Source: Dehalococcoidia bacterium
Lineage (GTDB): Bacteria; Chloroflexota; Dehalococcoidia; Dehalococcoidales; SURF-40
Direction of reading: 5' to 3'
Length of the DNA: 47,488 nucleotides
Assembly (NCBI GenBank): GCA_003599745.1
Contig: QZJL01000040.1
Span: forward strand, 1-47,488
Below the pieces are notes generated by a model. It saw nothing but the letters and a program-made list of their open reading frames with translations, was not told the origin of the DNA and ran no database searches. Position numbers and translations under genes: made by a program. This document shows, in pieces, positions 23,451-45,889 of the stretch. Numbering within the stretch: the stretch's first letter is position 1; each line of letters opens with the position of its first letter.

Positions 23451-23485
23451 AGCTATGACTTCTCCATTACCTTTTAGCCATCCTA

Positions 23486-28146: not shown

Positions 28147-28159
28147 CCACCCCTACCCC

Positions 28160-28663
28160 TCAACTATGTTTCACCGCCCAGTCATACGGGATATGATTTT
28201 TTAACGGGTCAAGTCGCATGCTGCGCAAGGGGTCATGCACATGCGTGCAACAATTGGCTACCATTGCGTAGGGTTCGCTCATTCCCTTGAACCCGTTCCA
28301 TACTTCCGGGGGAATTACAACCAGCGAGTAGCTGTCCTGACCGAGAAAAATCTCCACCAGCGACCCTTTGGTTGGGGATTCTTTGCGCTCGTCGTAGAGC
28401 ACCAGCTTGATGCGCCCGAAGATGCAGGCATAGCTTAGCGTCATCTCGCGGTGCTGGTGCCACCCCTTTATCACATCCTTATAGATGGTTGAGAAGTAGA
28501 TTTCACCGAACTTTTGAAAATGACTGTCCGTTGCCCTTAACATGTGGAAAATGGTTCCTCGCTCATCGGGGATGCGTCGCAGGGGGATGACTTTCACCCC
28601 TTCGATTAGACGGTCGCCGCTGAGTATTTTCACACCGTCGGTTATATTCACATTTGAACTCAT
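28160..28663 (-). CDS. RmlC-like NDP-4-keto-6-deoxyhexose 3,5-epimerase (cupin)
   Basis: IPDERG, KGWHQH, IPPEVWNGF, IPYDW. Confidence 0.85.
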   Translation of the reverse strand: MSSNVNITDGVKILSGDRLIEGVKVIPLRRIPDERGTIFHMLRATDSHFQKFGEIYFSTIYKDVIKGWHQHREMTLSYACIFGRIKLVLYDERKESPTKGSLVEIFLGQDSYSLVVIPPEVWNGFKGMSEPYAMVANCCTHVHDPLRSMRLDPLKNHIPYDWAVKHS

Positions 28664-30940: not shown

Positions 30941-30944
30941 CCGT

Positions 30945-31718
30945 TTACTCCTGCCAAATCTTCCAGGGTGCCTTGCCGTTTTGCCACAGGTTTTCTAGTA
31001 GTTGCACATCGCGCAGCGTATCCATGCACTGCCAGAAACCTTCGTGTTTATAGACTGCCAGTTCTCCACCGGCGGCAAGTTGTCTCATCGGTTCGTGTTC
31101 CCAGTGGGTGGCATCCCCCTCGATGTAGTCCACCGCCCCAGGTTCCAGCACGAAGAAACCGCCGTTTATCCAGCCTTCGCCAATCTGGGGCTTTTCTTCA
31201 AAGTGGCTTGCCAGGTCGCCGTTTAGAGTGATGCCGCCGAAGCGGGCCGGCGGGCGCACCGCGGTAACCGTTGCCAGCTTGCCCCGGCGGCGGTGAAACT
31301 CAACCAGGCGCTTGATATCTATGTTCGCGACCCCATCCCCGTAGGTGAGCAGGAAAGGCTCCTTGCCGATAAACCCGGCAGCGTGCTTGACCCGGCCGCC
31401 GGTCTGGGTATTCAGCCCGGTATCCAGAAGATGCACCGTCCAGTCTTCGGTTTCGCCATTGTGGCGGGTCACTTCACCGCTGGCTAATCTCACGCTCAAG
31501 CTGTTTGTCCGGTTGCAGTAGTTAACAAAGTAGTCCTTGATGACTTCGCCGCGGTAGCCGAGGGCGATGATAAACTCATTAAAGCCGTAAGCGGCATAGC
31601 TTTTCATAATGTGCCAGAGAATCGGGCGTCCCCCGATTTCAACCATCGGCTTCGGAATTTCAGTTGTTTTTTCCGATAGACGGGTGCCAAGTCCACCTGC
31701 CAGGATTACCACTTTCAT
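30945..31718 (-). CDS. rfbF: Glucose-1-phosphate cytidylyltransferase
   Basis: [50 protein letters not shown]. Start ATG 31718. Confidence 0.93.
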
Positions 31719-31747
31719 AACTACTCTCCGCACCGGAATGCAAGTCT

Positions 31748-31780: not shown

Positions 31781-32890
31781 TTACGTCTGTCTCTGCTTGA
31801 TAGTTCCTACTAGGTGACGGTATTCGTGCACGCTGCGTTCCCGCACGACCGGCCTGCTGAGCAATTTCCCGGCGATTGCCCCGGCGAGCTTCAGCGGGTT
31901 TAAGGTCATGCGGTTTTCGGCTGCGCCGGGAACCGTAAGATTGGTGTAGGGAATGCCGAGCACCTGCCATTCCTTCACATCATAATATTCCCCCATAATA
32001 GAGCTAACAGTGGTGAGCTGGTCGTTATGCTTGGAACGGTCGCGGTTATGGCTGTAAAGGTACTGGCACTCCAGTTCCGCCAGCTTGCGGATATATCCCG
32101 TGACCTGTTCGGTCGTCATCTCCTGGAAGGAAATCATGTTGATGGCTAAATCAACCTTGTTCAACTTCATTTGATTAAAGAAAAAGTCCGGCAGAAAGGT
32201 GAAATCATATGACTGGTAGCTGTCGAGCAACTGCCCCTCGGGCTTGTCGCCGTAAATGAGCATCGCCGCCTTCGGGAAAAGCGCTTTGAGATAGACGGCG
32301 GAAAACAGCAGTGTCTGGGGCAGGTCGAAAATGATGTAGCAGGTGTTCGGGAAAATGGTCTTGAACTGGTAGGCAAAGCCTCCCCACCCCGCGCCGATTT
32401 CAATTGCTACCCTCCGCTCATCGCTCCGGTTACGGAAGTCATCAAGCAGTCCGGCCTTATTCATGGCGATGAGGGTTTCGTAAAACTTGAGGGTGTCGAG
32501 GTTTACCAGCGCGCCATCAACTACGTGGCCGAAGCCTCCCAGTAGCGGCGATTCGGGCACGAATAAACCCTCCCCGTCCAGGTGCTTCAGGGCGTGCAGC
32601 TTATTTACGAAGGGTTCGCTCTTGTGGGCGTGATGGTCGCGGTACTCGTAAGAGCGGATGCCACTGATGTGGTGGCAGTGCTCGCGCAGCTTCTCGATTA
32701 TCAGGGGGGAAGCGTCGAGCATATAGGTAAACCCCGCCAACTCCTCCGCCCAGTAGTCGGAGGGATGATTGCCAAGCTTCTGCGCCTGCTCCAGCATTTC
32801 TACCACGCGGTCGCGAACGTGAAGATAGTAGCGGAATACCTCGCTCTGCCTGGCGGTTTCAATGGCGTTTTGCAGGGCGTTACTGCTCAC
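31781..32890 (-). CDS. Putative sugar O-methyltransferase (TIGR04371-like)
   Basis: PSDYW, IEIGAGWG, IFDLP, N..SFQEM. Confidence 0.75.
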   Translation of the reverse strand: MSSNALQNAIETARQSEVFRYYLHVRDRVVEMLEQAQKLGNHPSDYWAEELAGFTYMLDASPLIIEKLREHCHHISGIRSYEYRDHHAHKSEPFVNKLHALKHLDGEGLFVPESPLLGGFGHVVDGALVNLDTLKFYETLIAMNKAGLLDDFRNRSDERRVAIEIGAGWGGFAYQFKTIFPNTCYIIFDLPQTLLFSAVYLKALFPKAAMLIYGDKPEGQLLDSYQSYDFTFLPDFFFNQMKLNKVDLAINMISFQEMTTEQVTGYIRKLAELECQYLYSHNRDRSKHNDQLTTVSSIMGEYYDVKEWQVLGIPYTNLTVPGAAENRMTLNPLKLAGAIAGKLLSRPVVRERSVHEYRHLVGTIKQRQT

Positions 32891-34313
32891 TTTTCACCTT
32901 TTCTCTCTCCGGCAAGCGAGAGCCAATTTCCGAGTTTATTTGCGCGGCGCTTTTCCCCCTGGCCGCAAGCTCAATTGCCCGGGCGGCAACCTCCCCGGCG
33001 GAAAGCTCTAACCCGTATGGTCTTATAAAATCCAGGATGAATTTGCGCCGGTTTTCTCTTTTGGCGTCTTTGCCGTCCAGCAAGTCGGCGATAACGCTGG
33101 TCGCTTGCTCCACAGTTTCCGCTTGTTCATACACGCCGGCATCCAGGATATATTGGAAATGGACTGCCCGGGAAGCGTTGGTATTGCGGTACTCATCAAC
33201 CAGGAGGGTGATGACCGGGCAGTCGGCTATAACGGCGTCTACCATCGCGGTGGTGTTCAAACCCGCCGCGCAGACCGCATAGCGCAGCGAGGCCGCGAAC
33301 TCGGCAAACGACCCGGGGGTATCTGGCAACTGGTTATCCCTGAGCCAGACTTTAACGTTGGGTGCCGATATCTTTTTATAGACTTCCTGGTTAGCGCCAT
33401 GGGGGCGGGCGAGAATGGTCATTTCCCCTAAGCGTTTGTCCGTGGCGTTTCGCAAGCTGGCAGCCAGCTTCTCTACCAGCCAGGTTTCGTCACGGGCGAT
33501 GTTCGCCGACGAACCCAGATAAACGATAAATGGCCTGACGGGGTCAAGCCCGACTCGCCGGCAGAACTCGTCTCTCGGTATTGTCGGTAAGCTGGCATCG
33601 AACCACTTGTCCAGAAACGGCGAGCCGGTAATTACTATCTTATCAGCCGGGACATGGTGGATGGAAGCTGCTTCCCCGGCCTGGGCGCGGTTCCACGCAA
33701 GTGTAATATCGGGAATGGCGTGGAAAAGCCCCTTGGTCGTGAGGTTATCCCAACTTAAAACCGGCACCACCGTTGGTATGCCCAGGGATTTGGCGGCTTT
33801 GACGTATTCCACTTCTTCGGAAAAACGCATGTCAACCGGCGATGCCACCACCACGTCGGGGCGGTTTTCCTTGAGCCAGCGCTTGATTTGTGTATCGGGC
33901 GGGACGAGGCGTTCAAATGTTCTGAGGGCTGACGCCACCGGTCTGCTCGCAATAAATTTCCGGGCGAGCTTTGACCTCTGGACGGCCAGCTTAACGTAGG
34001 GGTGCTGGTAATTTTGCCATCTTTTGGTATAGAACTCGTCCTGGTCTTGGCGGTGAAGGTAGCTTGAGTAGCTGAGCAGTTCACGCGAGGCGAACAGCGG
34101 GCGTCGCCAAAGTCCCTTCCGGCGTAGCGACCAGCCGGTGGTCAAATTTTTATTGGCGGCCAGGCAGGCCTGCACCGGAGTGTCGGGGTAATTCTTGCTC
34201 CACCCATTGTCAAATAGAACCAGAACCCGGTGTCCATCAGAGTACAGGCTCTTTACCACCGACTCGTGGTAGGTAAAGTGAGAGATTGAGCGCATTACAT
34301 AAAGAATTTTCAT
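32880..34313 (-). CDS. GT-B fold glycan transferase-like protein (CDP-glycerophosphotransferase/KpsC-like)
   Basis: RPDVVV, LSWDNLTTKG, TGSP..D, RPH, NTTAMVDA; located in the glycan operon. Confidence 0.55.
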   Translation of the reverse strand: MKILYVMRSISHFTYHESVVKSLYSDGHRVLVLFDNGWSKNYPDTPVQACLAANKNLTTGWSLRRKGLWRRPLFASRELLSYSSYLHRQDQDEFYTKRWQNYQHPYVKLAVQRSKLARKFIASRPVASALRTFERLVPPDTQIKRWLKENRPDVVVASPVDMRFSEEVEYVKAAKSLGIPTVVPVLSWDNLTTKGLFHAIPDITLAWNRAQAGEAASIHHVPADKIVITGSPFLDKWFDASLPTIPRDEFCRRVGLDPVRPFIVYLGSSANIARDETWLVEKLAASLRNATDKRLGEMTILARPHGANQEVYKKISAPNVKVWLRDNQLPDTPGSFAEFAASLRYAVCAAGLNTTAMVDAVIADCPVITLLVDEYRNTNASRAVHFQYILDAGVYEQAETVEQATSVIADLLDGKDAKRENRRKFILDFIRPYGLELSAGEVAARAIELAARGKSAAQINSEIGSRLPEREKVKSEQ

Positions 34314-34349
34314 TTCATTCGTAGCTGGAAGCTTGTCCTGATGCCTTGG

Positions 34350-35510
34350 CTAAAGATTTTTGCCCTCTTTTGAAATCTTGTCATCTGATAGGTCAGGTGG
34401 AAGAATCCACTTTCTATGGGTCGAGTCAAAAGTAGCAGCGGAGTTGTCCCTGAAACGGCGATGGCAAAATAGACAATCTTCCGATAGATGATGCGCTATC
34501 ATAGATTTTCTGAAATTAATGATACCTTGGCTGTTGAAATGATAACCTTTAAATATATTGCCTATTTCCGGGTTAAAGGGGAGATGACAGCAGTAGCTTA
34601 TATCACCGGTAGGACTGATATAAACTTTATTCCAGGGGTATTGACAAATTTCTTTTTTGAATGTTTCAGAACCTGGGTTAAGTATTAAAGGAAGATGTAT
34701 CGAAAAAGGGAAATCATCCTTGCTGATGAACTCTGCAAGAAAATGTTTTACAGCCGGGCTGCTACTGACAAGGGATGTTAATGAGCTTGAGCCGTGGGCG
34801 TTTCCGGGGCTAAAGTTCAGAAACGTAGGCTTAACCTGTTTAGCAAACTGAATTACTTCCTGAACCTTGCTCAAATTTTCTTCAAATAAAACATAGCTCA
34901 GCGTAAACGGAATCTTTTGTGCATTTAATAAATCAATCCCGCTCATCATCTTGTCAAATTGCTTCCTGGTCCCGTTTGTGGTTCGTTCAAAGGATTCATA
35001 ATCAAGACCATTAAGACTGATATTCAAATCATCAATCGACTTTAAATCGTTTATTCTTTCTTTGATTAAGGTCCCGTTGGTAGACATTTTCAAACGAAAG
35101 TTTTTGCTTTTTGCGCTCGTTACGATTTCAGAAAATTCAGGGTGAGCCGTAGGCTCTCCACCTTGTAATGCGATGGTTCCGATATCTTTACCGAATTTGT
35201 CTAGAATGCGATTGAAATCCAGAACACTCATTGTGGGTGCATTATCAAAAGCGTCTTTATCCTGAAGTAACCACTGGCAATATGAGCATCTAAGATTGCA
35301 ACGGAAAGTGATGTATATGTGAAATGAAGGTGGCACATAGCGAATTTTGGCTTTACGCCCGTAGGATTGTTTTATTAAATCTGACCTTCTGCGCTTTTTG
35401 TATTGTTGGCTATGGCGCTTAATATCCAAGGGGTCGAAAAGTAAGTTTAAAAGAAATATTGCTTCCGGTTTTGAAACGAGCATTTCAGACACTTTTTTTT
35501 TGAAGTTCAT
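34350..35510 (-). CDS. Radical SAM enzyme with a Twitch/SPASM domain
   Basis: CNLRCSYC, GGEP, STNG; C-terminal CQYPW...GDISYCC...CLFC; AT-rich. Confidence 0.9.
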   Translation of the reverse strand: MNFKKKVSEMLVSKPEAIFLLNLLFDPLDIKRHSQQYKKRRRSDLIKQSYGRKAKIRYVPPSFHIYITFRCNLRCSYCQWLLQDKDAFDNAPTMSVLDFNRILDKFGKDIGTIALQGGEPTAHPEFSEIVTSAKSKNFRLKMSTNGTLIKERINDLKSIDDLNISLNGLDYESFERTTNGTRKQFDKMMSGIDLLNAQKIPFTLSYVLFEENLSKVQEVIQFAKQVKPTFLNFSPGNAHGSSSLTSLVSSSPAVKHFLAEFISKDDFPFSIHLPLILNPGSETFKKEICQYPWNKVYISPTGDISYCCHLPFNPEIGNIFKGYHFNSQGIINFRKSMIAHHLSEDCLFCHRRFRDNSAATFDSTHRKWILPPDLSDDKISKEGKNL

Positions 35511-35629
35511 CGCATGGAATCCTCATGGTGCGATTGATTAGGCTCACGAAATTTAAAAGATGCACTTCCCCATCTTAGACATAATCTTCCCGGGCTGAAG
35601 AACACGGATATATTTGAGATCGATTTCAT
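35507..35629 (-). CDS. Putative 40-aa small ORF (not in the ORF track)
   Basis: MKSISNISVFFSPGRLCLRWGSASFKFREPNQSHHEDSMR*. The ATG is 1 nt after the upstream TAA, and the TGA overlaps the radical SAM ATG (ATGA). Confidence 0.4.
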   Translation of the reverse strand: MKSISNISVFFSPGRLCLRWGSASFKFREPNQSHHEDSMR

Positions 35630-35630
35630 A

Positions 35631-36098
35631 TTAACATTCCCTATCGAGTGTGTAGCCAATTACCTTCGCCGGCACACCTGCAAGAATGCAACCATTTGGA
35701 AAACTCTTCGTCACAACCGACCCGGCGGCAACAATACAATTGTCCCCTAAAGTAACACCGCCTATTATTGTGACTCCTGATGTAATAAAAGATCCGGCAC
35801 CTATTCTAATATCATAACCTTGAGTTGGCACTTGTTCGGATTTCGGTTGTTTTAGCTTTCCGCCTTCAAAAGCGTGTCTTCCAGTAATGAACATGCAATT
35901 ATAGCCAATAACCGTCCCTTTGCCTATGTATATGTGGCCACTTCGTGTATTGAAAATGGCATTGACAGTTGTCCGTTCTTTCGCTCTTTCCCAATGAAGC
36001 CGTTCAGCCGGGCCGTGTATGAAGTGCCGATAATAATGCGCAAAACCTAAACCGGAAAGGTAATTAATAATAAATTCCTTGACTTTCACAGATTTCAA
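35631..36098 (-). CDS. Left-handed beta-helix O-acyltransferase (maltose acetyltransferase-like)
   Basis: Hexapeptide repeats IYIGKG, IRIGAGSFI, GVTLGDNCIVAAGSVVTK, AGVPAKVI. Confidence 0.88.
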   Translation of the reverse strand: MKSVKVKEFIINYLSGLGFAHYYRHFIHGPAERLHWERAKERTTVNAIFNTRSGHIYIGKGTVIGYNCMFITGRHAFEGGKLKQPKSEQVPTQGYDIRIGAGSFITSGVTIIGGVTLGDNCIVAAGSVVTKSFPNGCILAGVPAKVIGYTLDREC

Positions 36099-36105
36099 CC
36101 TTCTA

Positions 36106-37374
36106 TCATTCTCTAAACAATGATTTCCATTTTAACAAAGGTCGCATCACCCCAGCCAAATTCTCGGCATAGTCTCCACGAGCGGAGGGTTCGGTCATCG
36201 GGTCGAATATCTGGAAAGTGATTGTATCCCTTACTCGGACGAATTGAAGTTTTATTCCTCTGGAGTTGAAAATCGTGATTCCTACTGTATATTCCCCTTC
36301 AGCCAGCAAGTTTGGCGGAATAAAGACCTCGGAAAAATAGTCTCCAATTTGTTCCTGCCTAGTTTCAGAAGGCTCAATAGTTGAAAATGCACAGACGCCC
36401 TGCGTGAAAAAGAGAGCGGCACAGCGGAACGACAGGCCGGGTTGCCCAATGTGATAGCCGATACGTAGTGTTAACGGCTCATGCACTTCAACCACCGAAG
36501 CCGGTGTGCCGTCTGCCTTGAGCAACTTGATTGAGGTGAGTCTTAGCTCGTCGGTGCCCGGCGCTTCCTCCAATTCCCAGGTTCTCTGCCCGCCCACCCC
36601 GGCTTCACCGTTCAGGTAGGCGTTGGTCACGCTGACCGAATGCCCGTCCTGCACCAGCCGCCCGTTATCCAGCAAAATAGCCCGCGGGCACAGGCGGTTG
36701 ATGGCTGCCATGTTGTGGCTCACGAATAAAACCGTCCGCCCCTCTTTTGAGACGTTCTCCATTTTGCCCAGGCATTTCTTCTGGAACTGGGCATCGCCCA
36801 CCGCCAGCACCTCATCCACCAGCAATATCTCCGGCTCGAGATGGGCGGCTACCGAAAACGCCAGGCGCACCTGCATGCCGGAGGAGTAACGCTTTAAAGG
36901 AGTATCTATAAATTTCTCGACGCCGGAAAATTCCACAATCTCGTCGAACTTGCGCTTAATCTCGTATCGCTTCATTCCCAGTATGGCGCCGTTGAGATAG
37001 ACGTTCTCCCGCCCGGTCAGCTCGGGGTGAAAACCGGTGCCCACTTCCAGCAGGGCGCTTACCCGCCCGCGGATTTCGGCGCCGCCCTCGGTTGGCTCGG
37101 TGATGCGGGTGAGAATCCGCAGCAACGTGGTTTTGCCCGCCCCGTTACGGCCGATGATGCCCACCACCTCGCCTTGTCTGACCTGGAAAGAAACGTCCTT
37201 GAGCGCCCAGATATAGTTATCCGGCTTCGTAGCCTGCGTGCTTCCGTCTCTGAAACGCCGGAAAGGGCTCAAAAGGGCATGTGACAGGTTTTCCTGCAGG
37301 TTGCGGTAGCCGACAAACTGGCCGGTTCGATAGAGCTTGCCCAGGTTTTCAGCTTTGATGGCGAAATCGCTCAT
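36106..37374 (-). CDS. wzt: Glycan ABC exporter ATPase with C-terminal carbohydrate-binding domain
   Basis: GRNGAGKTT, LEVGTGFHPELTGREN, YSSGM..RLAF, DEVLAVGD, VSH, about 170-aa C-terminal extension. Start ATG 37374. Confidence 0.93.
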   Translation of the reverse strand: MSDFAIKAENLGKLYRTGQFVGYRNLQENLSHALLSPFRRFRDGSTQATKPDNYIWALKDVSFQVRQGEVVGIIGRNGAGKTTLLRILTRITEPTEGGAEIRGRVSALLEVGTGFHPELTGRENVYLNGAILGMKRYEIKRKFDEIVEFSGVEKFIDTPLKRYSSGMQVRLAFSVAAHLEPEILLVDEVLAVGDAQFQKKCLGKMENVSKEGRTVLFVSHNMAAINRLCPRAILLDNGRLVQDGHSVSVTNAYLNGEAGVGGQRTWELEEAPGTDELRLTSIKLLKADGTPASVVEVHEPLTLRIGYHIGQPGLSFRCAALFFTQGVCAFSTIEPSETRQEQIGDYFSEVFIPPNLLAEGEYTVGITIFNSRGIKLQFVRVRDTITFQIFDPMTEPSARGDYAENLAGVMRPLLKWKSLFRE

Positions 37375-37375
37375 G

Positions 37376-38209
37376 TCACAGCACGTCCGCAAACTCTTTT
37401 TCACGGTGACGGAAATAGTAAAGCCCGGAGACCAGCAGCAGGATAACAATCGCCGCTGACACGGCAATCAGGTAGCCGGGAGGCTCCGTCCCCAGTAGCG
37501 TCCAGCGGAAGCCTTCGATGACGCCGGCCATGGGGTTCAGCCCGTAGAAAGTCTGGAAGCGCTGCGGTAACAGGCTGGCAGGATAGACAACCGGCGAAAC
37601 GAACAGGCCAAGCTGAATCAGGAACGGGACGATATGCCCGATATCGCGGTATTTGGCGTTGATGGCCGAGAGCCATAAACCTATGCCCGCTGCCGTCAAC
37701 ATTGCCAGGATGATAAATACTGGCAGCCATAACATTCTTAAAGTAAGCCCATAGCCGAAGTAAAACATCAGGCCGACTAAAACTAGAAAGCCGATGAGAA
37801 AATCAACCAGGGGCGGCAGAATGCCGGAGAGGGGCATCGCCAGCCTGGGGAAATAGACCTTCTTCACCAGGTTGGCTTCGCTGACGAGACTGTTCGAGGA
37901 AAGGGCAACTCCCTGGGCAAACAGGTTCCAGGGAAGCAAGGCGGCGTAGCTGAAGAGGGGATAAGGAGTACCTTCTGAAGAAACTCCGAGCAGGTTACCG
38001 AAAAAGAGCGAAAATACCACCATCATCATGACCGGCTGGATGATTGCCCAGGCGAAGCCGAGCACCGTTTGTTTGTAGCGTACCTTGATTTGCCGCCAGG
38101 TGAGGAAATAGAACAACTCGTGATAAGCCCACAAATCTCTCAGGTGGACGGGAACCCAACCCCTTGATGGTCGAATCCTGATAACCGGCTCAGATATAAT
38201 GCTTTTCAT
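37376..38209 (-). CDS. wzm: Glycan ABC exporter permease
   Basis: KVRYKQTVLGFAW, LVKKVYFPR, YRD, SPVVYP, LNPM, EKEFADVL. Confidence 0.93.
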   Translation of the reverse strand: MKSIISEPVIRIRPSRGWVPVHLRDLWAYHELFYFLTWRQIKVRYKQTVLGFAWAIIQPVMMMVVFSLFFGNLLGVSSEGTPYPLFSYAALLPWNLFAQGVALSSNSLVSEANLVKKVYFPRLAMPLSGILPPLVDFLIGFLVLVGLMFYFGYGLTLRMLWLPVFIILAMLTAAGIGLWLSAINAKYRDIGHIVPFLIQLGLFVSPVVYPASLLPQRFQTFYGLNPMAGVIEGFRWTLLGTEPPGYLIAVSAAIVILLLVSGLYYFRHREKEFADVL

Positions 38210-38221: not shown

Positions 38222-39178
38222 TTAATTCCCTAATTGCAAACCGGCAGTTTCTCGGGCCGTCAGCGCTTCGATGGTCTCTCTTAGCCCCTCCTCGAACCTA
38301 TACTCGGGCTGATAGCCGAAACCCGCTGCCCGGGAGATATCCGCTAGGCTGTGCCTGATGTCTCCCGAGCGGGGCTTGCGGTAGGCGAGTTTCATTTTTT
38401 TTCCGCCGAGGCGGATGATGAGCTTCGCCAGGTCGTTGATTGAGCTTTTTTCGCCGGTGCCGATATTAAAAACCCCGTTAGCATCGCTTTCCGCCGCCAG
38501 CAGGCTTGCCCTCACCGCATCTTTAACAAAGGTAAAGTCACGGGTCGCCTCGCCGTCGCCGAAAATTTCCGGCGGCTTGTTCTTTAAGACGCTGGTCAGG
38601 AATTTCGAAATCACGCCGGAGTATTCCGAATTCGGGTCCTGGCGCGGCCCGTAGACGTTGTAATAGCGGAGAACCGCGGTGGGCAAATCGTAGGCCTGGC
38701 TGAATACCGTGCAGTAATATTCTCCGGCGAGTTTTGATACGGCGTATGGTGACTTCGGGTTAGGCAGGATGTCTTCGTGCTGGGGAGCTTCGCCGGTGTC
38801 ACCGTAAACCGCCGCCGAAGAGGCGAAAACCACTTTCTTCACCTTGCTGCGCCGGGCGGCCAAAAGCACGTTCAGGGTGCCGGTGGCGTTCACCTCGTGG
38901 GTGAGCCTGGGGTCGGTAAGGCTTTTCGGCACGCTGGCGATGGCCGCCAGGTGGAAAACATATTTTGCCCCCGAGAAAGCACTCTCCAGCCGTGACAGGC
39001 TGGTGACACTGTCTATGATGAGCGTTGCCTTGCCCTCCTTCAGGTGGCGTGCGATATTAGATTCTTTCCCGCTGGAAAGGTCGTCGATGATGGTGACCCG
39101 ATGGTCCCGGTTTACCAGCTCATCGACGAGGTGCGACCCGATAAACCCGGCGCCGCCGGTAACGACCGTCTTTATCAT
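38222..39178 (-). CDS. UDP-hexose/HexNAc 4-epimerase family (extended SDR, WbpP-like)
   Basis: TGGAGFIG, HLAAIASVP, SSAAVYG, PYAVSK, NVYGPRQDP, TRDFTFV. Confidence 0.88.
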   Translation of the reverse strand: MIKTVVTGGAGFIGSHLVDELVNRDHRVTIIDDLSSGKESNIARHLKEGKATLIIDSVTSLSRLESAFSGAKYVFHLAAIASVPKSLTDPRLTHEVNATGTLNVLLAARRSKVKKVVFASSAAVYGDTGEAPQHEDILPNPKSPYAVSKLAGEYYCTVFSQAYDLPTAVLRYYNVYGPRQDPNSEYSGVISKFLTSVLKNKPPEIFGDGEATRDFTFVKDAVRASLLAAESDANGVFNIGTGEKSSINDLAKLIIRLGGKKMKLAYRKPRSGDIRHSLADISRAAGFGYQPEYRFEEGLRETIEALTARETAGLQLGN

Positions 39179-39180: not shown

Positions 39181-41118
39181 TTATTCCTTATCCGCCTTCA
39201 CCACGTCCAGTATACGTTCCGCCAGGTTCTCGCCGTCAAGCCGGTGATACGCCAGGGCTTCCGCCGGCGTGCCGCAGGCGGGGAAGCCTTCCACCGCGAA
39301 CTTGTGAAATTTCCTGGCGCGCAGCTTTACCGAGGAAAGCGATGCGTTCAGCAGGTTGTCTCCCAGGCCGCCATAAGGCGAGTGGTCATCCAGCACGAAG
39401 ATATTAGAACAATCCCCGGTTACCGCCTCAAACCAGGCTACGTCAACCCGGTTCAGCCAGGGCATATTGACCACTTTCAGGGCGAAACCCTTTTCGGCCA
39501 GGAGTTCGCCCGCCAGCAGTACCTCGTTCAGCATCACCGGGCCGTAGGCGAAGATGGCAGCGCCGTTGCCATTACGCAAGACACAGCCCTGTCCCGGTTC
39601 GAATTTATAATTTGCCGGCAGGGCGATGGTGCGCGGCGAGGGCGAAATCACCAGCCGCAGCATGCAGTTTTCTTTGGCTTCGTTGACGCACCACTCCAGT
39701 GCGAGCGCCGTCTCGGTGGCGTTGGCGGGCTCGATAGCGACCAGGTTGGGCATAGCGCCCAGCAGCGAAATGTCGCGCAGGCTCTGGTGAGATTGCCCCG
39801 GCCCGGCGGGGATGAGACCGGCGTAATGGCAGACATAGATGATTTTTGTCCCTTCGGTCGAGTTGGTGTAAATCTGCTCGTTGGCTCGCGACGCCAGGAA
39901 AACCCCGAACGAGTTGACGATGGGCAAAAAGCCCTGGAGCGCCAATCCTCCGGCGGTAGACACCATATCCTGTTCGGCGATGCCGTTTTCGATAAACCTG
40001 TCAGGGAACTTCGCTTCGAAGAAACGCAGGCCGCAGTCCGCCGCCAGGTCGGCATCCAGCACCACAATGTCCGGGCGCTTTTCGCCAAGCTTCGCCAGCG
40101 CCTCGCCGTAGGCGTCCACCACCTTTTCGGCGGTATCCTTGAGGCGGGTGGTGCGCCTTCCCCTGGTCTCAATCAGTTCGTTGGTAAGCGGCTCAAGCCC
40201 GGCTTCCCCCAGTTTTCGGTTGATTCTTTCAGCAATCTCGGCGTGCGCCGCTTCGAAAGCGTCATCGTCGGGTGCGCCGGAGTGCCAGCGGTAAAGACCG
40301 CCGCCGTCTTTCAGCGCCTGAGGTCCTTCCATGAATGAGATGCCTTTGCCCTTGACGGTGTCGGCGATGAGGGCCTTCGGTCTATCGGTGACATTCTCGA
40401 ACTCGCGGAAAATCTTTTCTAGCTGCGCGAAGTCGTGGCCGTCGCCGCGGGCGGCATGCCAGCCGAAATCCTCGAATTTTCTTTGCAGGTCGCCGAGATT
40501 GATGACTTCTTTCACCGGCCGGTCGGTCTGAATCTTGTTGCAATCTACGATTACCTGTATATTGTTGACCTTTTGGTGCGCTACTGTCTGGAGGGATTCC
40601 CAGATTTGCCCTTCCTGGAGCTCGCCGTCGCCGGTCATGACGAAGACCCCTCCGCCGTGGCCGCTCATCTTCTTGGCTATTGCCATGCCCTTTGCCTTGG
40701 AGATGCCCATACCCAACGAGCCGGAGTTGGCTTCGACGCCCGGCGTGCCGACATCGGGGTGGCCGCAGGTGCCGCCGAACCGCCTCAAGTTGATGAACTT
40801 TTCTTTGGGCAAAAGCCCCAGCGAATATAGCACGGCGTAGAAACCGGGCACGTCATGCCCCTTGGAGGAAAAATAAATATCGCGGTCGGGGTGTTCCAGC
40901 CCCAGTTTTGCCGTGTTCATTACCGAATAATAGAGCGCCACCACGATGTCCAGCGAGCTTAGAGAAGAGCCGAGATGTCCCGAGCCGGCGCGCTTTACCA
41001 TGTTAAGGGCATTAAGGCGGCACATGTCGGCGATTAACTCAAGTTTACGGTAGTAGTCAATCCCGGCGGCACTTACCCGCTGGAACTCCTGTATGGGTAC
41101 GAGCCTGATTTCCGGCAT
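39181..41118 (-). CDS. ThDP-dependent transketolase-like enzyme (fused N- and C-terminal parts)
   Basis: SGHLG, SKGH, GHP, GSLGMG, ThDP motif GDGELQEG...DCN, TVKGKG, DADL, GIAEQ, GQSHQ. Confidence 0.9.
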   Translation of the reverse strand: MPEIRLVPIQEFQRVSAAGIDYYRKLELIADMCRLNALNMVKRAGSGHLGSSLSSLDIVVALYYSVMNTAKLGLEHPDRDIYFSSKGHDVPGFYAVLYSLGLLPKEKFINLRRFGGTCGHPDVGTPGVEANSGSLGMGISKAKGMAIAKKMSGHGGGVFVMTGDGELQEGQIWESLQTVAHQKVNNIQVIVDCNKIQTDRPVKEVINLGDLQRKFEDFGWHAARGDGHDFAQLEKIFREFENVTDRPKALIADTVKGKGISFMEGPQALKDGGGLYRWHSGAPDDDAFEAAHAEIAERINRKLGEAGLEPLTNELIETRGRRTTRLKDTAEKVVDAYGEALAKLGEKRPDIVVLDADLAADCGLRFFEAKFPDRFIENGIAEQDMVSTAGGLALQGFLPIVNSFGVFLASRANEQIYTNSTEGTKIIYVCHYAGLIPAGPGQSHQSLRDISLLGAMPNLVAIEPANATETALALEWCVNEAKENCMLRLVISPSPRTIALPANYKFEPGQGCVLRNGNGAAIFAYGPVMLNEVLLAGELLAEKGFALKVVNMPWLNRVDVAWFEAVTGDCSNIFVLDDHSPYGGLGDNLLNASLSSVKLRARKFHKFAVEGFPACGTPAEALAYHRLDGENLAERILDVVKADKE

Positions 41119-41885
41119 TACCGTCTGGGCTCCTTGATGGGATAGGGGTCCTGGGGAACTTCCGGCAGCTTCGCCTGGCCGGTGCGTACCAGTTCCTCGG
41201 CTACCAGCCAGTCTTCGGGCCGGTTAATGTCGAACCCTTCGTAGCCCTTCGTGAGAAAAGGCATCACCACCTTGCCGGCGATGGTGCCCTCCTCGAAGAC
41301 GACGCGGCTCCAGGCAATCTCTAAGCTCGCGTTCTGGGCGTAGACTTCGGGCAGGCTCTGGTAGGGCGTGCTGTGAGCGGGCAGCCCGGCGGGGCTGTCG
41401 AGAAGCGGGCGCATGCGATTACCGTTTACCAGCCACATCTTGGCGGGGTGCTGGCGGCATTTTTCCACTGCCCGCAGCGAATCAACTCTGTTTTGCGAGA
41501 TGAATTCGCGCCGCGCCCGCCTGATGGTCGCCGGCTGGCGGAAGGGGCTGGTGGGGCGCAGGATGGCAAAGCAATCATAATTTTCGCCCTCGTCGGCGAG
41601 CCGTACCAGGGTGTATTTCACCCACTCGATGTCCGGGCTGAGCTCACCGGCGAACTGCTTTGGCCGGAGGAAGGGCACATCAGCGCCGTAGTAGCGGGCG
41701 ATGGCGGCGTAACGCCGCGAGTCGGTTGATACCACCACCCGGCTAAATACGTCGCTTTCAAGAACGGCGGCGATGGCGTAAGCCAGGAGCGGGTGGCCGC
41801 CGAGCGGCCTGATATTTTTGTGGCGCACCCGCTTCGAGCCGGCTCTGGCCGGGATGAGGGCGATAGCGGTCAGTTTTCTGGTCAT
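41118..41885 (-). CDS. CMP-ulosonic acid synthetase (NeuA-family cytidylyltransferase)
   Basis: IPARAGSKRV..KN, VSTD, PFLRP, PTSPFR, QNAS, FDIN...DW. Confidence 0.92.
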   Translation of the reverse strand: MTRKLTAIALIPARAGSKRVRHKNIRPLGGHPLLAYAIAAVLESDVFSRVVVSTDSRRYAAIARYYGADVPFLRPKQFAGELSPDIEWVKYTLVRLADEGENYDCFAILRPTSPFRQPATIRRARREFISQNRVDSLRAVEKCRQHPAKMWLVNGNRMRPLLDSPAGLPAHSTPYQSLPEVYAQNASLEIAWSRVVFEEGTIAGKVVMPFLTKGYEGFDINRPEDWLVAEELVRTGQAKLPEVPQDPYPIKEPRR

Positions 41886-41895
41886 ATGAGAAACC

Positions 41896-43377
41896 CTATG
41901 CCGTTTCCGGTTGAATATTAATATAAATATCTTTAAGTTCGGAATAGACGTCCAGCGCCTCCGTGCCCGGCTCGCGCCAGCCGTTGCCGGAGTTTTTCAC
42001 CCCGCCGAAGGGCATGTGCGGTTCGCTGCCGTAGGTACCGGCGTTGACCACCGCCACTCCTGCCTGGACTTTATGGCTGAATTCCAGCGCCCGGTTAAAG
42101 TTTTGGGTGTGAATGCAGGCTGTCAGTCCGTAAGGCGAGTTGTTGGCCAGTTCCAGCGCTTCCTGGAAATCCCGGGCGCGATAAAGGCAGGCCACCGGGC
42201 CGAATAGCTCAGAAGTGGAAATTTCGCTGTCGGGAGCGGCGTTCTCAATCAGGGTAGGAGCTATGTAAAAACCGTTACGATGTGCGGGGTCGGTGAGCCG
42301 CTTGCCGCCGGTAAGAATTTTAGCCCCCGCCCTGCGCGCCCGTGCGACCGTGCCGAGTATGTTGCTTAGCTGTTCTCCGTTGATGACCGGGCCGAAGTCA
42401 TCGCTGTCCGCCGTGCCCACTTTCAGCTTGGCGGCTCTCTCCACCAGATTCCGGCGGAATTTATCATAGACGCTGCTGAAGATAATGATGCGGCTGGCGG
42501 CGGCACAGCGCTGGCCGGCGTTTGAGAAGGCCGAAAGAAGCACCCATTTGGCGGCGTTTTCCAGGTCGGCATCGTCACAGACCACCATCGGGTTCTTGCC
42601 GCCAAGCTCCAGCGACACCTTTGCCATGCGTTCACCGGCGATACCCGCAATCTGCCGCCCGACGGCGGTCGAGCCGGTGAAGCTGATGAGGTCAACTCCG
42701 GGGTTTTTCACCAGCGCCGCCCCGGCCTCTTCGCCGTACCCCTGGATGATATTGAGCAGTCCGGCGGGCAATCCCGATAGACGGGCAATCTCGCCGAAAA
42801 TCCAGGCGGTGACGGGCGTGTCCTCGGCGGCCTTGAGGATGGCGGCGTTGCCGCAGACGAGCGCCGGAAATACTTTCCAGGCGACGTTGGCGATGGGGGT
42901 GTTGGCGGCCACAATCAATCCAGCAACACCGACCGGCTGGCGCACCGTCATGGCGTATTTGTTCGGCGTGCCACTGGTGGTGGTCCTGCCGTAGAGCCGC
43001 TGGCCTTCGCTGGCATAAAAAAGCCCCAGGGCGATAGCGCCGCCGGTCTCGCCCAGGGCGTCTTTTAATGATTTGCCGGTCTCGGCGGCCACGACTTGTG
43101 CGACCTCTTGCTGGCGTGCCTTTAAGCCAAGCACGATGTCGTGGAGCAGCATGCCGCGTTGGACGGCGGGGGTATTCGCCCAGACGGGCTGCACTTTGCG
43201 GGCGGCCTTCACCGCCCTGGCGATGTCTTTTTCATCGGAGCGTGCCGCCCGGCAGAGAATTTCGCCGTCAGCCGGATTAAGCTTATCGAAAAGCTTTCCT
43301 GATGCCGCCGGGAGTTCTTTGCCGCCAATCCAGTTCGGAATTTCCGTAGGGAAAGTCCTTTTTTGCGGTCTCACCAT
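41896..43377 (-). CDS. Aldehyde dehydrogenase family protein
   Basis: ETGK, FTGST, LELGGKNP, catalytic NAGQRC, ELFGP, YGL, PFGGVKNSG. Start ATG 43377. Confidence 0.93.
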   Translation of the reverse strand: MVRPQKRTFPTEIPNWIGGKELPAASGKLFDKLNPADGEILCRAARSDEKDIARAVKAARKVQPVWANTPAVQRGMLLHDIVLGLKARQQEVAQVVAAETGKSLKDALGETGGAIALGLFYASEGQRLYGRTTTSGTPNKYAMTVRQPVGVAGLIVAANTPIANVAWKVFPALVCGNAAILKAAEDTPVTAWIFGEIARLSGLPAGLLNIIQGYGEEAGAALVKNPGVDLISFTGSTAVGRQIAGIAGERMAKVSLELGGKNPMVVCDDADLENAAKWVLLSAFSNAGQRCAAASRIIIFSSVYDKFRRNLVERAAKLKVGTADSDDFGPVINGEQLSNILGTVARARRAGAKILTGGKRLTDPAHRNGFYIAPTLIENAAPDSEISTSELFGPVACLYRARDFQEALELANNSPYGLTACIHTQNFNRALEFSHKVQAGVAVVNAGTYGSEPHMPFGGVKNSGNGWREPGTEALDVYSELKDIYINIQPETA

Positions 43378-44189
43378 GCCGTCCACCCGCCATCAATTAC
43401 CAGATTCGAGCCGGTCATATAAGAAGAAGCAATCGAGATGAGAAATATGACCGCTCCGTTATACTCGTCCTCGCGCGCCATCCGTCCCAGCGGCACCCGG
43501 GCAATGTAGCCTTCCAGAAAGTTCTCATCCTGGTCATTGAAAACCCCGCCGAAAGTGAGGGTGTTGACGCGTACGTTCTTCGCTGCCCAGTAGGTGGCGA
43601 GGTAGCGGGTCAGGTTAAAGAGCGCCGACTTTGACGCCGAGTAGGCCACCGGCTTGAAGAACGGCGCGCCGCCTTTATTGCGGTATTCGTAAAGGCGCTG
43701 GTCGGGCGAGACCAGGCCGTACATCGAGCTGATGTTAATGATTGAGCCACTTTGGGCTTTGGCCATCTCCTCGCCAATCACCTGGCAGCACAGGAAAACC
43801 CCCTTTACGTTTACCGCCATCACCGAGTCCCAGGAGCTTTCCGGGTAACTCTCGAAAGGCCCGTTCTCGCTGGTGGGGGCACCGGGCGGCGAGTCCAGTG
43901 CGGCGTTGTTGATGAGGGCGTTCGGGACTCCCCAGGTTTTTTTCACGTTTGCCAGCGCGGTTTCGATTGAACCGCGCCTAGTAATATCAACCGCCGCAAA
44001 AAGCAGGTTTTCATCTTTGGCACGACTGCCGAATCTTTCGGCGACTGTCTTTTCGTCTACTTTCTGGTCAAAGACTGCCACTTTTGCTCCCCGGTCAGCT
44101 AGCGCCAGGCTGAACTGCCGGCCAAGCTGCCCCAGGCCGCCGGTAACCACCACAATTTTTCCGTTTATGTCGAAGAGGTCTTCGGACAT
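43371..44189 (-). CDS. Classical SDR oxidoreductase (PtmA/FlaA1-like flavour seen in nonulosonic acid loci)
   Basis: TGGLGQLG, INNA, ISSMYG, YSASK, RVN, MTGSNLVIDGGW. Confidence 0.88.
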   Translation of the reverse strand: MSEDLFDINGKIVVVTGGLGQLGRQFSLALADRGAKVAVFDQKVDEKTVAERFGSRAKDENLLFAAVDITRRGSIETALANVKKTWGVPNALINNAALDSPPGAPTSENGPFESYPESSWDSVMAVNVKGVFLCCQVIGEEMAKAQSGSIINISSMYGLVSPDQRLYEYRNKGGAPFFKPVAYSASKSALFNLTRYLATYWAAKNVRVNTLTFGGVFNDQDENFLEGYIARVPLGRMAREDEYNGAVIFLISIASSYMTGSNLVIDGGWTAW

Positions 44190-44194
44190 ATTAG

Positions 44195-44728
44195 TTATTC
44201 CTTACCGTGAGCCAGCACCCGCTCGAACAAATCGCATACCTCGCGCACCGCGCCCCGACCGCCCGGCAGGTTGGTGCGGTAAATGGCGGCGGGAACGACC
44301 TCCGGCTGAGCATCCTGCACCACGATGGGCAGCCCCACGTGGCTTAGGCACTCAAGGTCGTTATAGTCATTGCCCACGAAGGCCACCTGCTCCAGAGAGA
44401 ATCCCATTTCACCGGCCACCTGGTTAAGGGCGGCGCACTTGTCGGCGCAGTTCTGGAGGCAACGGATGCCCAGCTTGCGGCTGCGCTGTGTGACGACCGG
44501 GTTGGCTTCGGTTGATATGATGACGGCTTCGATGCCGGCGGCCTTCAGCTTGCCCAGTCCCAGGCCGTCCCCCCGGAAGCAGCGTACCATCTCGGTGCCG
44601 TCTTCGGAGACATATACCATGTTGTCGGTAAAGACGCCGTCGAAGTCGAAAGCTACCAGCCGCACCGCCCGGATACGTTCTTCAAGCGTTCTGGTATTGG
44701 CGCTTTCCCGGCTATTTCTTCTTGGCAT
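44195..44728 (-). CDS. KdsC/YrbI-family HAD phosphatase (Kdo8P/KDN9P phosphatase-like)
   Basis: FDFDGVFTD, DGLG, IIS, K, FVGND.ND, GGRGAVRE. Start probably ATG 44728. Confidence 0.9.
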   Translation of the reverse strand: MPRRNSRESANTRTLEERIRAVRLVAFDFDGVFTDNMVYVSEDGTEMVRCFRGDGLGLGKLKAAGIEAVIISTEANPVVTQRSRKLGIRCLQNCADKCAALNQVAGEMGFSLEQVAFVGNDYNDLECLSHVGLPIVVQDAQPEVVPAAIYRTNLPGGRGAVREVCDLFERVLAHGKE

Positions 44729-45776
44729 TAGCCAGGTCCTGGTAGGAAATAGACTCATCTTCCTTGAAGGCGCGGAGGGTCACTTTGCCGATAACATTTT
44801 TCAGCTCGTAAGGGGCAAGGCCGTCGTTCGGTGACTTGATGGCGATATCCTCGCGGGTGAGTGTGTGGCCGGCCCGGAGATTACGGGCGGCCACCAGCTT
44901 TTTGCCCATCTTGTACAGGCCGTTGGTCTCGCTGGGATAAACCCGTTTCACCCCGTCGCCTTGGGCGACGCGCGCCCGTTTGAGGTCGCGCACCACCCGG
45001 CTCAAGCCGGGACGTTCCAGCGAGAAAGCGTGGTCGGTGCCTTTCATGGCGCGGTTGAGGGTAAAGTGCTTTTCGATAACCCTGGCGCCCAGCACCGCCG
45101 CCACCAGCACCATGGCGATACCGCTGTCGTGGGCGGAGAGACCGATAACGATGTCCGGGAAACGTTCGCGGTAGGTGGTGATGGTCTTCAGGTTCATCTC
45201 TTCGAAGGCACAGGGATAGGAACAGGTCGCCTGCATCAGGCAGAGCTGGCGGTTGATGGGCATGATGGTGTCGTAGGCGCACTCGACATCCGCCATCGTG
45301 CCGCCGCCGGTGCTGACAATCATCGGTTTCTGGAAGCGGGCGACGTATTCCAGGAGGGGCGTATTCTTGAGGTCGCCGGAGGCAATCTTGAAAGCGGGCA
45401 CGTCAATGTCCATCAAAAAGTCGGCGCTTTTGAAATCGAAGGCGGTGGCGAAGAGGGAGATGCCGATTTCCTTGGCATACTGCTTCAGTTCGCGGTATTC
45501 GTTTGGTCCGAACTCAAGGGCTTCGCGGTGCTCCCCGTAGGTCTTGCCGAAGCTGTTTTCGTTTTCGTAAGGCTGGTTGTAAAGCGCCCGGGTATAAAGG
45601 CTGCGGTTATCCCGTTTCTGGAATTTGGCGGCGTCGGCGCCGCATTCTTTGGCTGCCCGGAGCATCTCCAGGGCGGTTGACAGTTTGCCCTGGTGGTTGT
45701 GGCCGATTTCGGCGACGACGTAGCAGTCGGTGTCGTCGGAGATGCGCCGACCGTTGATTATCAGTTCGCGTACCAT
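44712..45776 (-). CDS. N-acetylneuraminate synthase (NeuB/SpsE)-family PEP-condensing synthase with C-terminal SAF domain
   Basis: AEIGHNHQG, AKFQK, FKIASGD, STG, CSYP, GLSAH, IEKHFTL, GTDH, SAF tail. Start ATG 45776. Confidence 0.95.
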   Translation of the reverse strand: MVRELIINGRRISDDTDCYVVAEIGHNHQGKLSTALEMLRAAKECGADAAKFQKRDNRSLYTRALYNQPYENENSFGKTYGEHREALEFGPNEYRELKQYAKEIGISLFATAFDFKSADFLMDIDVPAFKIASGDLKNTPLLEYVARFQKPMIVSTGGGTMADVECAYDTIMPINRQLCLMQATCSYPCAFEEMNLKTITTYRERFPDIVIGLSAHDSGIAMVLVAAVLGARVIEKHFTLNRAMKGTDHAFSLERPGLSRVVRDLKRARVAQGDGVKRVYPSETNGLYKMGKKLVAARNLRAGHTLTREDIAIKSPNDGLAPYELKNVIGKVTLRAFKEDESISYQDLANAKKK

Positions 45777-45859
45777 TTTCCCACCAACTCCATCGTGGTA
45801 TTGTCGCCTGCCCGGGTAACCCAAGGTGCTGGCTTCGGCAGTCGGTAATTTCAGATTAG

Positions 45860-45889
45860 ATTATATTGCAAAGCTTTCGGCGATGTAAA
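45860..45889 (-). promoter_or_regulatory. Promoter of the NeuB-led glycan operon
   Basis: TTTACA (45889-45884), 18-nt spacer, TATAAT (45865-45860). A divergent TATAAT lies at 45913-45918 on the plus strand. Confidence 0.55.

Follow-up and report, generated by a model that had tools for sequence, protein, structure and literature searches.

A conserved NeuB-transketolase gene module in a Dehalococcoidia genome and a proposed route to a non-canonical CMP-activated sugar acid

Six biosynthetic genes that lead a glycan operon in a Dehalococcoidia bacterium (GenBank assembly GCA_003599745.1, contig QZJL01000040.1), together with a KpsC-like glycosyltransferase (GT) encoded further along the same contig, are best explained as a horizontally mobile module for a nitrogen-free, non-canonical derivative of a 3-deoxy-2-ulosonic acid. 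In this explanation the module activates the sugar acid with cytidine monophosphate (CMP) and transfers it onto a glycan exported by an ATP-binding cassette (ABC) transporter. The window, that is, the whole stretch of DNA analysed, spans 47,488 nucleotides, and its cassette encodes a NeuB-family synthase, a KdsC-type phosphatase of the haloacid dehalogenase (HAD) class, a short-chain dehydrogenase/reductase (SDR), an aldehyde dehydrogenase (ALDH), a NeuA-like CMP-sugar synthetase and a transketolase (TK)-like enzyme that depends on thiamine diphosphate (ThDP). CMP-activated ulosonic acids, such as 3-deoxy-D-manno-oct-2-ulosonate (Kdo), the sialic, legionaminic (Leg) and pseudaminic (Pse) acids and 2-keto-3-deoxynononic acid (KDN), are key surface sugars, and the pathways leading to them are regarded as well catalogued. 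The seven-gene module, comprising the six biosynthetic genes and the transferase, fits none of these pathways. All of its enzymes come from known families, and the succession of synthase, phosphatase, CMP-synthetase and transferase follows the logic of known ulosonic acid pathways; the transketolase step, on the contrary, is without precedent among them. We know of no pathway for such acidic sugars that contains a transketolase, and no published description of the six-gene combination was found in a literature search of sources other than subscription journals and supplements.

It is very probable that the cassette is dedicated to making a non-canonical acid of the CMP-ulosonic type. This reading builds on what is directly observed, namely the gene content, its conservation, the enzyme families, an altered pocket in the TK and the fold of the transferase. 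A specific chain-shortening route, set out below, is our leading proposal for the chemistry, although we place it somewhat short of even chances. Bolder, and on balance doubtful, is the full claim that the module represents the first route to an ulosaric acid sugar, in which a KDN-like acid loses two carbons of its glycerol-like tail to a dedicated TK and oxidised to a CMP-activated 3-deoxy-heptulosaric acid, with which the KpsC-like enzyme caps the ABC-exported glycans of many anaerobic bacteria and archaea. If true, the surface glycans exported in this way across many anaerobic bacteria and archaea would carry a doubly charged cap, and no transketolase would have been known before this one in the biosynthesis of nucleotide sugars or ulosonic acids. 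Even with a different product, the cassette, with its well-defined enzymes, would lend itself to clean tests.

Layout, families and spread of the cassette

The six genes are co-directional open reading frames (ORFs) on the minus strand (39181-45824), with adjacent ones abutting or overlapping (Table 1). The KdsC-like ORF overlaps that of NeuB, read from its TTG start, by 47 nt; a gap of 5 nt follows between KdsC and the SDR, then an overlap of 16 nt between the SDR and the ALDH, a gap of 10 nt between the ALDH and NeuA, and an overlap of 1 nt between NeuA and the TK. The ORFs, Pfam and NCBIfam agree on the six tightly packed genes and on the families that an initial annotation, made from the letters alone, had named for them. 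The same annotation had given the operon a promoter of its own. A sigma-70-like match does lie upstream of NeuB and, read from 45889 to 45860, is the best promoter-like match of the region; however, the five such sites found in the region are not above chance (3.8 +/- 2.2 in shuffles).

Table 1. Features of the cassette, its partner glycosyltransferase and the surrounding operon
Feature	Position	Strand	Evidence and remarks
NeuB-family phosphoenolpyruvate (PEP)-condensing ulosonic acid synthase with C-terminal SAF	44712-45776 (ATG)	-	open to TTG 45824
KdsC/YrbI-type (HAD-IIIA, C0) sugar-acid phosphate phosphatase	44195-44758	-	DxDG nucleophile motif; Hydrolase_3
Classical SDR	43371-44189	-	adh_short_C2 147 bits
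NAD(P)-dependent ALDH	41896-43386	-	Aldedh 503 bits; catalytic Glu (ELGGK) and Cys (GQRCAA)
NeuA/PseF-like cytidylyltransferase, putative CMP-ulosonic acid synthetase	41118-41885	-	CTP_transf_3 68 bits
ThDP-dependent TK-like enzyme, distinct subfamily	39181-41118	-	Transketolase_N, _pyr, _C; signature D361, Y/L432, P440, R448
Sigma-70-like match TTTACA-18-TATAAT upstream of NeuB	45860-45889	-	11/12 positions; consensus match only
KpsC/WbbB-like (beta-Kdo-transferase fold) glycosyltransferase, 558 aa	24607-26283	-	PF05159, predicted structure, cassette neighbour
Second KpsC-like glycosyltransferase (paralogue), 221 N-terminal aa, cut by contig end	46825-47487	+	divergent from cassette
Wzm	37376-38209	-	ABC2_membrane
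Wzt with C-terminal carbohydrate-binding domain	36106-37467	-	ABC_tran; Wzt_C 34.7 vs 30.4
NanM-family putative sugar O-methyltransferase	31781-32890	-	TIGR04371 102.6 vs 44; homologues in 2 cassette loci
Trp48 TK-like proteins P0083, P0099, P0101, P0117, P0128, P0135, P0136, P0146, P0147, P0152, P0153, P0156			

While the families are clear, all six cassette proteins miss the curated equivalog cut-offs of NCBIfam. NeuB matches PF03102 over its full length 1-241 (256.3 bits) and SAF with 42.7 bits in Pfam. Placed against characterised synthases by curated HMM cut-offs and by scores against the PDB, it lies outside both the Neu5Ac-synthase equivalog (TIGR03569, NeuB_NnaB; 290 vs 399.65 bits) and PseI (227.5 vs 340.25 bits), and its nearest solved structures score only ~130-150 bits. 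The phosphatase falls below the cut-offs for the KdsC equivalog (120.9 vs 208), the TIGR01670 subfamily (101.4 vs 106.95) and KDN-9-phosphate (KDN-9-P) phosphatase (NF058599; 82.8 vs 180 bits), its best solved relative being 3mmz with 120 bits. The same holds for the NeuA-like protein with respect to PseF (130.3 vs 205.7) and for the TK with respect to NF004559 (398.2 vs 488) and TIGR00232 (161.4 vs 682.25).

The two oxidoreductases deserve a closer look, as their top NCBIfam rows describe particular kinds of substrate. The ALDH, a member of the Aldedh superfamily only, is headed by alpha-ketoglutaric semialdehyde dehydrogenase (NF042993; 423.7 vs 770) and 2,5-dioxovalerate dehydrogenase, both of which act on 2-keto-3-deoxy omega-aldehydo acids. 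The top rows for the SDR, all below cut-off, are PRK09186, gluconate 5-dehydrogenase, mannonate oxidoreductase and KduD, of which the last three are omega-1 sugar-acid dehydrogenases. Further, the SDR has an Asp after beta-2 (VAVFD), which by the rule we assume marks a preference for NAD+, so that the sequence suggests the use of this cofactor.

Conservation across genomes argues for a dedicated pathway. With the TK-like protein as query and one genome per species, 405 relatives were found and 80 kept (55-76% identity); loci were counted only where at least 6 kb of upstream sequence was available (n=46), a match being defined by E<=1e-15 and >=60% coverage. SDR, ALDH and TK occur together in 40/46 of these loci and NeuB in 44/46. 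The complete six-gene set is present in 24 and all except KdsC in 14, while the remainder lack ALDH (3), KdsC and SDR (2), NeuA (1) or NeuB (1), or show the TK alone (1). In a separate metagenome scan seeded by NeuB, 23 loci had 6 kb or more of downstream sequence; SDR and NeuA occur in all 23 of them, TK in 22, ALDH in 21 and KdsC in 2. Thus the proposal that SDR, ALDH and TK are conserved companions of NeuB is borne out from either end of the cassette. The gene order of the window recurs among the TK-seeded loci, and the same gene set and order in dozens of unrelated genomes places the arrangement far from chance. Moreover, more than 12 loci have the order NeuB-(KdsC)-SDR-ALDH-TK with NeuA and the GT as a separate pair, and the TK therefore belongs with the sugar-making steps.

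The hosts span at least 10 bacterial phyla and several archaeal lineages and are mostly uncultured anaerobes. They include Desulfobacterota, Chloroflexota, Nitrospirota, Planctomycetota, Acidobacteriota, Gemmatimonadota, Ignavibacteria, Omnitrophota and Gammaproteobacteria, as well as Methanoregulaceae, Methanospirillaceae and one Helarchaeota metagenome-assembled genome (MAG). Closer to home, the TK was absent (E<=1e-100) from 40 relatives of the host, of which 1 belongs to the same genus, 1 to the same family and 38 to the same order, 19 of them being at least 90% complete. Because the module was not found in these relatives, it looks horizontally acquired by the host. The G+C content of the six-gene cassette is that of the host.

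The phosphatase varies among the loci. The initial annotation had paired NeuB with a KdsC-type phosphatase, and this stands for 30 of the 66 loci that show both NeuB and TK, but the partner is not universal: 17 loci have another HAD protein, so that a HAD phosphatase of either type is found in 47/66, and 19 have neither in view. Many of the NeuB-seeded metagenome loci carry a different HAD hydrolase after the TK. A second cassette subtype, with a TK ~46% identical, has an unrelated HAD_2-type hydrolase after the TK instead of the KdsC-type enzyme (locus L118, 15081-16052, and matching sites; 17 loci), which looks like a non-orthologous displacement of the phosphatase step.

The ALDH position also varies, being filled in loci L002 and L070 by a protein without known family and by a GDSL hydrolase, respectively. 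As neither filler is an aminotransferase or another ALDH, no variant of the cassette for an amino sugar was found. L070, from a Caldilineales MAG, has in addition a galactose-3-O-sulfotransferase-like gene directly after the TK (12007-12816), and together with the GDSL hydrolase in the ALDH position this hints at further tailoring variants. The epimerase gene next to the cassette in the window (38222-39178) was set aside as a seventh member, having a homologue in only 7/80 loci at ~29% identity.

Could the cassette simply be one of the ordinary pathways (to KDN, Kdo, Neu5Ac, Leg or Pse) beside which SDR, ALDH and TK genes of unrelated metabolism happen to lie? To make a KDN-type acid, as in B. 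thetaiotaomicron, NeuB would need no partners beyond a KdsC-like phosphatase and NeuA. However, the three additional enzymes accompany NeuB in an order that does not change between phyla or domains, every curated equivalog cut-off is missed, and neither NeuC nor a Pse/Leg set is present in the 78%-complete genome, which together make this explanation extremely improbable. Genes for FtsH, TsaB/E and RsmI mark the host assembly (74 contigs, 1.56 Mb) as bacterial; the NeuB of the cassette is its sole strong NeuB, and a separate housekeeping transketolase lies on another contig (C64). The window, which is contig C3 of the assembly, had been described as free of NeuC, of a Pse/Leg pair and of any aminotransferase. 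Indeed, genome-wide profile searches gave no PF02350 or PF01041 match on this contig, and no NeuC, PseB/C, LegB/C or aminotransferase domain appeared in any scanned window ORF, five of which (at 61-5953) were scanned against NCBIfam only, at E<=1e-20.

The possibility that the missing genes lie elsewhere also finds no support in the 78%-complete genome. The two Epimerase_2 genes of the genome (contigs C37 and C40) are of the WecB type (409 and 338 vs a cut-off of 210), with only 70-78 vs 235.9 for NeuC, although a neuC gene may be unassembled at this completeness. The single strong DegT aminotransferase, on contig C23, lies outside any Pse/Leg set; it stands in a cluster (4755-8808, minus strand) with a UDP-GlcNAc 3-dehydrogenase-like enzyme, a NeuD-type acetyltransferase and a UDP-sugar 6-dehydrogenase, which resembles a set for UDP-2,3-diacetamido-2,3-dideoxy-uronic acids. 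With NeuB outside the characterised equivalogs, its neighbours conserved and the canonical genes not found, the earlier suggestion of a non-canonical ulosonic acid pathway gains support, while the product itself would follow by deduction from the gene set.

The transketolase pocket and a proposed chain-shortening route

Among solved structures, the cassette TK is nearest to human transketolase (4kxu, 224 bits) and to a split bacterial TK, and not to DXS. Its residues for cofactor binding and catalysis, H48, H88, H120, GDG163-165, H279, E382 and H444, are invariant in 71/71 genome and 25/25 metagenome sequences. On the contrary, the substrate pocket is changed at positions that in the human enzyme we take to bind the sugar phosphate (R318, S345, H416, R474) and to select the D-threo configuration (D424). 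Human S345 corresponds to D361 in 96/96 sequences, H416 to Y, F or L at position 432 and never to His in the 96, D424 to P440 in 96/96, and E432 to R448 in 95/96. No Arg is found at the positions of human R318 and R474, where the alignment is less certain.

A search of the whole protein library for TK relatives, followed by MAFFT alignment of full-length representatives (n=89), found the D361-Y/L432-P440-R448 signature in 47 of the 89, at 33-57% identity to the query, whereas more distant representatives show the canonical S/H/D pattern (19/89) or other types. By its sequence, then, the signature defines a distinct TK subfamily, in which the catalytic set appears intact and the substrate pocket rebuilt. 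Another 12/89 TK-like representatives (Table 1) have Trp for the first catalytic His (48) and Tyr at 432 and keep the Asp at 440; they appear from the alignment to be a further uncharacterised subfamily.

An engineering precedent gives these changes a possible meaning. One study describes E. coli TktA R358I/H461S/R520Q as gaining activity on non-phosphorylated 5-keto-D-gluconate, with tartaric semialdehyde as product (PMC12016104). TktA R358, H461 and R520 are the same three phosphate-binding positions that are altered in the cassette TK. Because the residues for binding sugar phosphates are lost, the TK would shorten a chain rather than supply a precursor.

We infer the substrates, the order of steps, the product and the fate of the C2 unit as follows. 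An aldose phosphate would be joined to PEP by NeuB, a hexose 6-phosphate for instance giving a KDN-9-P-like nonulosonate, and the HAD phosphatase would release the terminal hydroxyl. The NAD-dependent SDR would then oxidise the penultimate hydroxyl, leaving a tail HOCH2-CO-CHOH-, that is, a ketose end, from which the specialised TK could take off a C2 unit to leave a terminal aldehyde on a chain two carbons shorter. Oxidation of this aldehyde to a carboxylate by the ALDH would, from a KDN-like precursor, yield a 3-deoxy-hept-2-ulosaric acid, a stereoisomer of 3-deoxy-D-lyxo-hept-2-ulosaric acid (Dha). The CMP-sugar made by NeuA would be transferred by the KpsC-like enzyme, possibly to end the chain with a cap that the C-terminal domain of Wzt reads.

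Such a scheme would give every conserved enzyme a role. KDN and Kdo should both carry, at the omega end, the D-threo arrangement that a TK donor needs, and in the pyranose form of a nonulosonate the ring oxygen would stand at the position that the lost Asp reads. The product from a KDN-like start would be 3-deoxy-L-arabino-hept-2-ulosaric acid, an isomer of Dha. The initial annotation had offered an ulosaric diacid and a chain length set by the ThDP enzyme as separate options; the two merge here into one route, but with the TK cutting the chain and not feeding in an unusual precursor.

The same conservation of SDR, ALDH and TK would also fit an ulosaric acid of unchanged length, made by SDR and ALDH oxidation of the terminal CH2OH, with the TK supplying an unusual aldose phosphate to NeuB. 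Dedicated precursor-supplying transketolases do exist in secondary-metabolite clusters, for example in the 3-amino-5-hydroxybenzoic acid (AHBA) pathway of rifamycin. Terminal oxidation of free Kdo by KdnB could serve as a natural precedent for the oxidative steps (PMC5125639). However, a TK without the binders of a sugar phosphate (D361 in place of Ser, no His432 and no Arg at two positions) is an improbable supplier, the genome already has its housekeeping TK, and the classical SDRs nearest to that of the cassette oxidise secondary and not primary hydroxyls, the last point being weak evidence. We consider this alternative unlikely.

The pocket, which suits a non-phosphorylated acid, could also act at the start of the pathway. 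SDR and TK would then cut a keto sugar acid such as 5-keto-gluconate to threuronate (tartaric semialdehyde), which NeuB would join to PEP, and the 3 + 4 carbons would make a heptulosaric acid in a single step. This is the exact chemistry reported for the engineered TktA on 5-keto-gluconate (PMC12016104, PMC7970118). It leaves the HAD phosphatase (47/66 loci) and the ALDH (61/69 loci) without a role, however, and the ALDH would compete for the aldehyde needed by NeuB; such an order of events is quite improbable. Still another thought is chain extension, as transketolases are reversible and the catalytic residues for the hydroxymethyl-ketone intermediate are intact: the TK would add a C2 unit to a terminal aldehyde and the SDR reduce the resulting ketone, giving a ten- or eleven-carbon ulosonic acid. 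But with the SDR used for reduction no enzyme is left to make the first aldehyde, and the nearly always present ALDH has nothing to do, which renders extension very improbable.

Chain shortening by the TK thus remains the route we favour, and several points weigh against it. The similarities of the SDR and ALDH to their nearest relatives are 30-40%, with all rows below cut-off, and do not fix the substrate. The usual acceptors of transketolases are sugar phosphates, so that the acceptor or fate of the C2 unit lacks an explanation; should the unit leave as glycolaldehyde, this might be the substrate of the ALDH instead. The residue roles are those described for human, yeast and E. coli TK, with the numbering checked against the chain indices of the structures, and posterior support is low around human R318/R474, leaving S345, H416 and D424 as the positions placed confidently. 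Moreover, the ALDH is missing in 3/46 and 2/23 loci, the SDR in 2/46 and the TK in 1/23, no HAD protein is seen in 19/66, and the loci, being related or horizontally shared cassettes, are not independent observations.

The partner glycosyltransferase and the surrounding glycan operon

A homologue of the KpsC-like GT adjoins the cassette in 21 loci, and the incomplete paralogue at the contig end matches the same gene in 20 loci, with a median identity of 47%. By sequence the GT is remote from known enzymes: it passes PF05159 (Capsule_synth) marginally (23.0 vs 20 bits), although 14/21 of its homologues match the family with a best E of 4.4e-07, and neither the single 558-aa query nor a 21-sequence profile gave a meaningful PDB sequence match. 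It was the fold comparison that identified the protein. In the AlphaFold model (pLDDT 85.7), VIA ranks 1-5 are all KpsC (Z 15.2-16.0, root-mean-square deviation 3.7-4.2 A over 266-292 residues), followed by WbbB with Z ~13 and 4.6-5.0 A, against more than 7 A for generic GT-B rows.

The beta-Kdo transferases KpsC, KpsS and WbbB presumably work with a catalytic Asp nucleophile and a CMP-binding HP motif. A motif R377-x-H379-P380-x-E382 is invariant in 21/21 GT sequences. Known members of the KpsC/WbbB fold use CMP-beta-Kdo, and the fold therefore fits a donor of the CMP-ulosonic type. The GT is likely the transferase for the CMP-sugar acid.

Downstream of the cassette the co-directional genes encode the epimerase, Wzm, Wzt, an acetyltransferase, a radical SAM protein and the NanM-type O-methyltransferase, a possible tailoring enzyme. 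Wzm and Wzt, by sequence and context the presumed ABC exporter of the glycan, have homologues near the cassette in ~10/80 loci. Further downstream lie a CDP-glucose-based set for a C-methyl deoxysugar, glycosyltransferases and a CsaB-like pyruvyl transferase. The deoxysugar set (27205-31733, minus strand) comprises a glucose-1-phosphate cytidylyltransferase (376 vs 300), an epimerase/dehydratase, a C-methyltransferase (PF08421/PF08484), a 3,5-epimerase and a reductase, and this complete-looking CDP-hexose branch suggests that the glycan also contains a C-methylated deoxyhexose. The CsaB-like polysaccharide pyruvyl transferase (23486-24610, minus strand) scores 119.9 vs 213 bits, below cut-off. 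Since pyruvylated wall polymers anchor S-layer proteins with S-layer homology (SLH) domains in monoderm bacteria, the glycan may be a secondary cell wall polymer.

The G+C content dips to 0.47-0.51 at 20001-24000 and to 0.42 at 34001-36000, vs 0.57-0.63 elsewhere in the window, the second dip covering the radical SAM gene (34350-35510) and the acetyltransferase; the glycan operon may have been assembled from pieces of differing origin. Elsewhere in the host genome, contig C37 carries an archaeal-type STT3 oligosaccharyltransferase (locus L095, 5137-7533, minus strand; TIGR04154, 549.8 vs 450 bits), with an AglJ/PpgS-like polyprenyl-phosphate glycosyltransferase, WecB, a B12-radical SAM enzyme and sugar epimerases as neighbours, which suggests an N-glycosylation-like system in this bacterial host.

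Comparison with known systems

Among known systems, the KDN pathway of the Bacteroides thetaiotaomicron type, with its KDN-9-P synthase, which uses mannose 6-phosphate, its KDN-9-P phosphatase and its CMP-KDN synthetase, is close in its general design. Like the cassette, it combines a synthase of the NeuB family with a C0-type phosphatase (HAD class, KdsC/KDN9PP family) and a CMP-synthetase, and its chemistry is likewise free of nitrogen. However, the cassette also keeps SDR, ALDH and TK (40/46 and at least 20/23 loci), and its phosphatase stays well below the KDN-9-P phosphatase cut-off. In the Kdo8N pathway of Shewanella, KdnB oxidises the terminal carbon of free Kdo as an 8-oxidase (PMC5125639). 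There, too, a dehydrogenase tailors the far end of a free 3-deoxy-ulosonic acid before CMP activation, as is proposed for the cassette; KdnB is, however, an iron-type alcohol dehydrogenase acting on the terminal carbon, and transamination by KdnA follows, whereas the cassette has SDR, TK and ALDH and no aminotransferase.

The removal of two carbons has its counterpart in the proposed tartrate route, which leads from 5-keto-D-gluconate through a transketolase to tartaric semialdehyde and on to a semialdehyde dehydrogenase (PMC7970118). Both start from an omega-1 keto sugar acid, let a TK remove the C2 unit and oxidise the new aldehyde. The tartrate route is catabolic or engineered, its substrate is a hexonic acid and its TK a housekeeping or mutated enzyme, whereas the cassette would have a natural, dedicated TK within a CMP-sugar operon. 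If chain shortening is true, nature would possess in the cassette TK an enzyme that splits C2 units off non-phosphorylated keto sugar acids, an activity obtained today by engineering TktA for tartrate. With canonical transketolases (human 4kxu, E. coli TktA) it shares the three-domain fold, the ThDP/metal motif and the catalytic His/Glu set, but the phosphate-binding and D-threo-selecting residues are replaced in the cassette subfamily, and it falls below the NCBIfam cut-offs.

The partner GT resembles KpsC/KpsS (GT107) and WbbB (GT99) in its fold, in its match to PF05159 and in the Wzt_C exporter encoded in the same operon. It differs in its low identity (~10-15%), in its length of 558 aa with extra N-terminal parts and in its donor, which is presumably not CMP-Kdo. 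In Klebsiella O12 and Raoultella, a terminal beta-Kdo cap is read by the carbohydrate-binding domain of Wzt, and by analogy the sugar added by the KpsC-like enzyme possibly has a capping role.

Finally, the kind of product predicted for the cassette brings it close to Dha, which, found in plant rhamnogalacturonan II (RG-II) and in the lipopolysaccharide of Rhizobiaceae, is to our knowledge the only well-known natural ulosaric acid sugar. A KDN-derived product of the cassette would be an ulosaric acid like Dha, although of the L-arabino and not the D-lyxo configuration. A 2025 review lists neither the biosynthetic enzymes of Dha nor its nucleotide form as known (PMC12168206). Should chain shortening hold, the module would add a new class of acidic sugar to prokaryotic envelopes and provide the first concrete enzymatic model for the origin of heptulosaric acids such as Dha, and a bacterial route of this kind would make the question of Dha biosynthesis testable.

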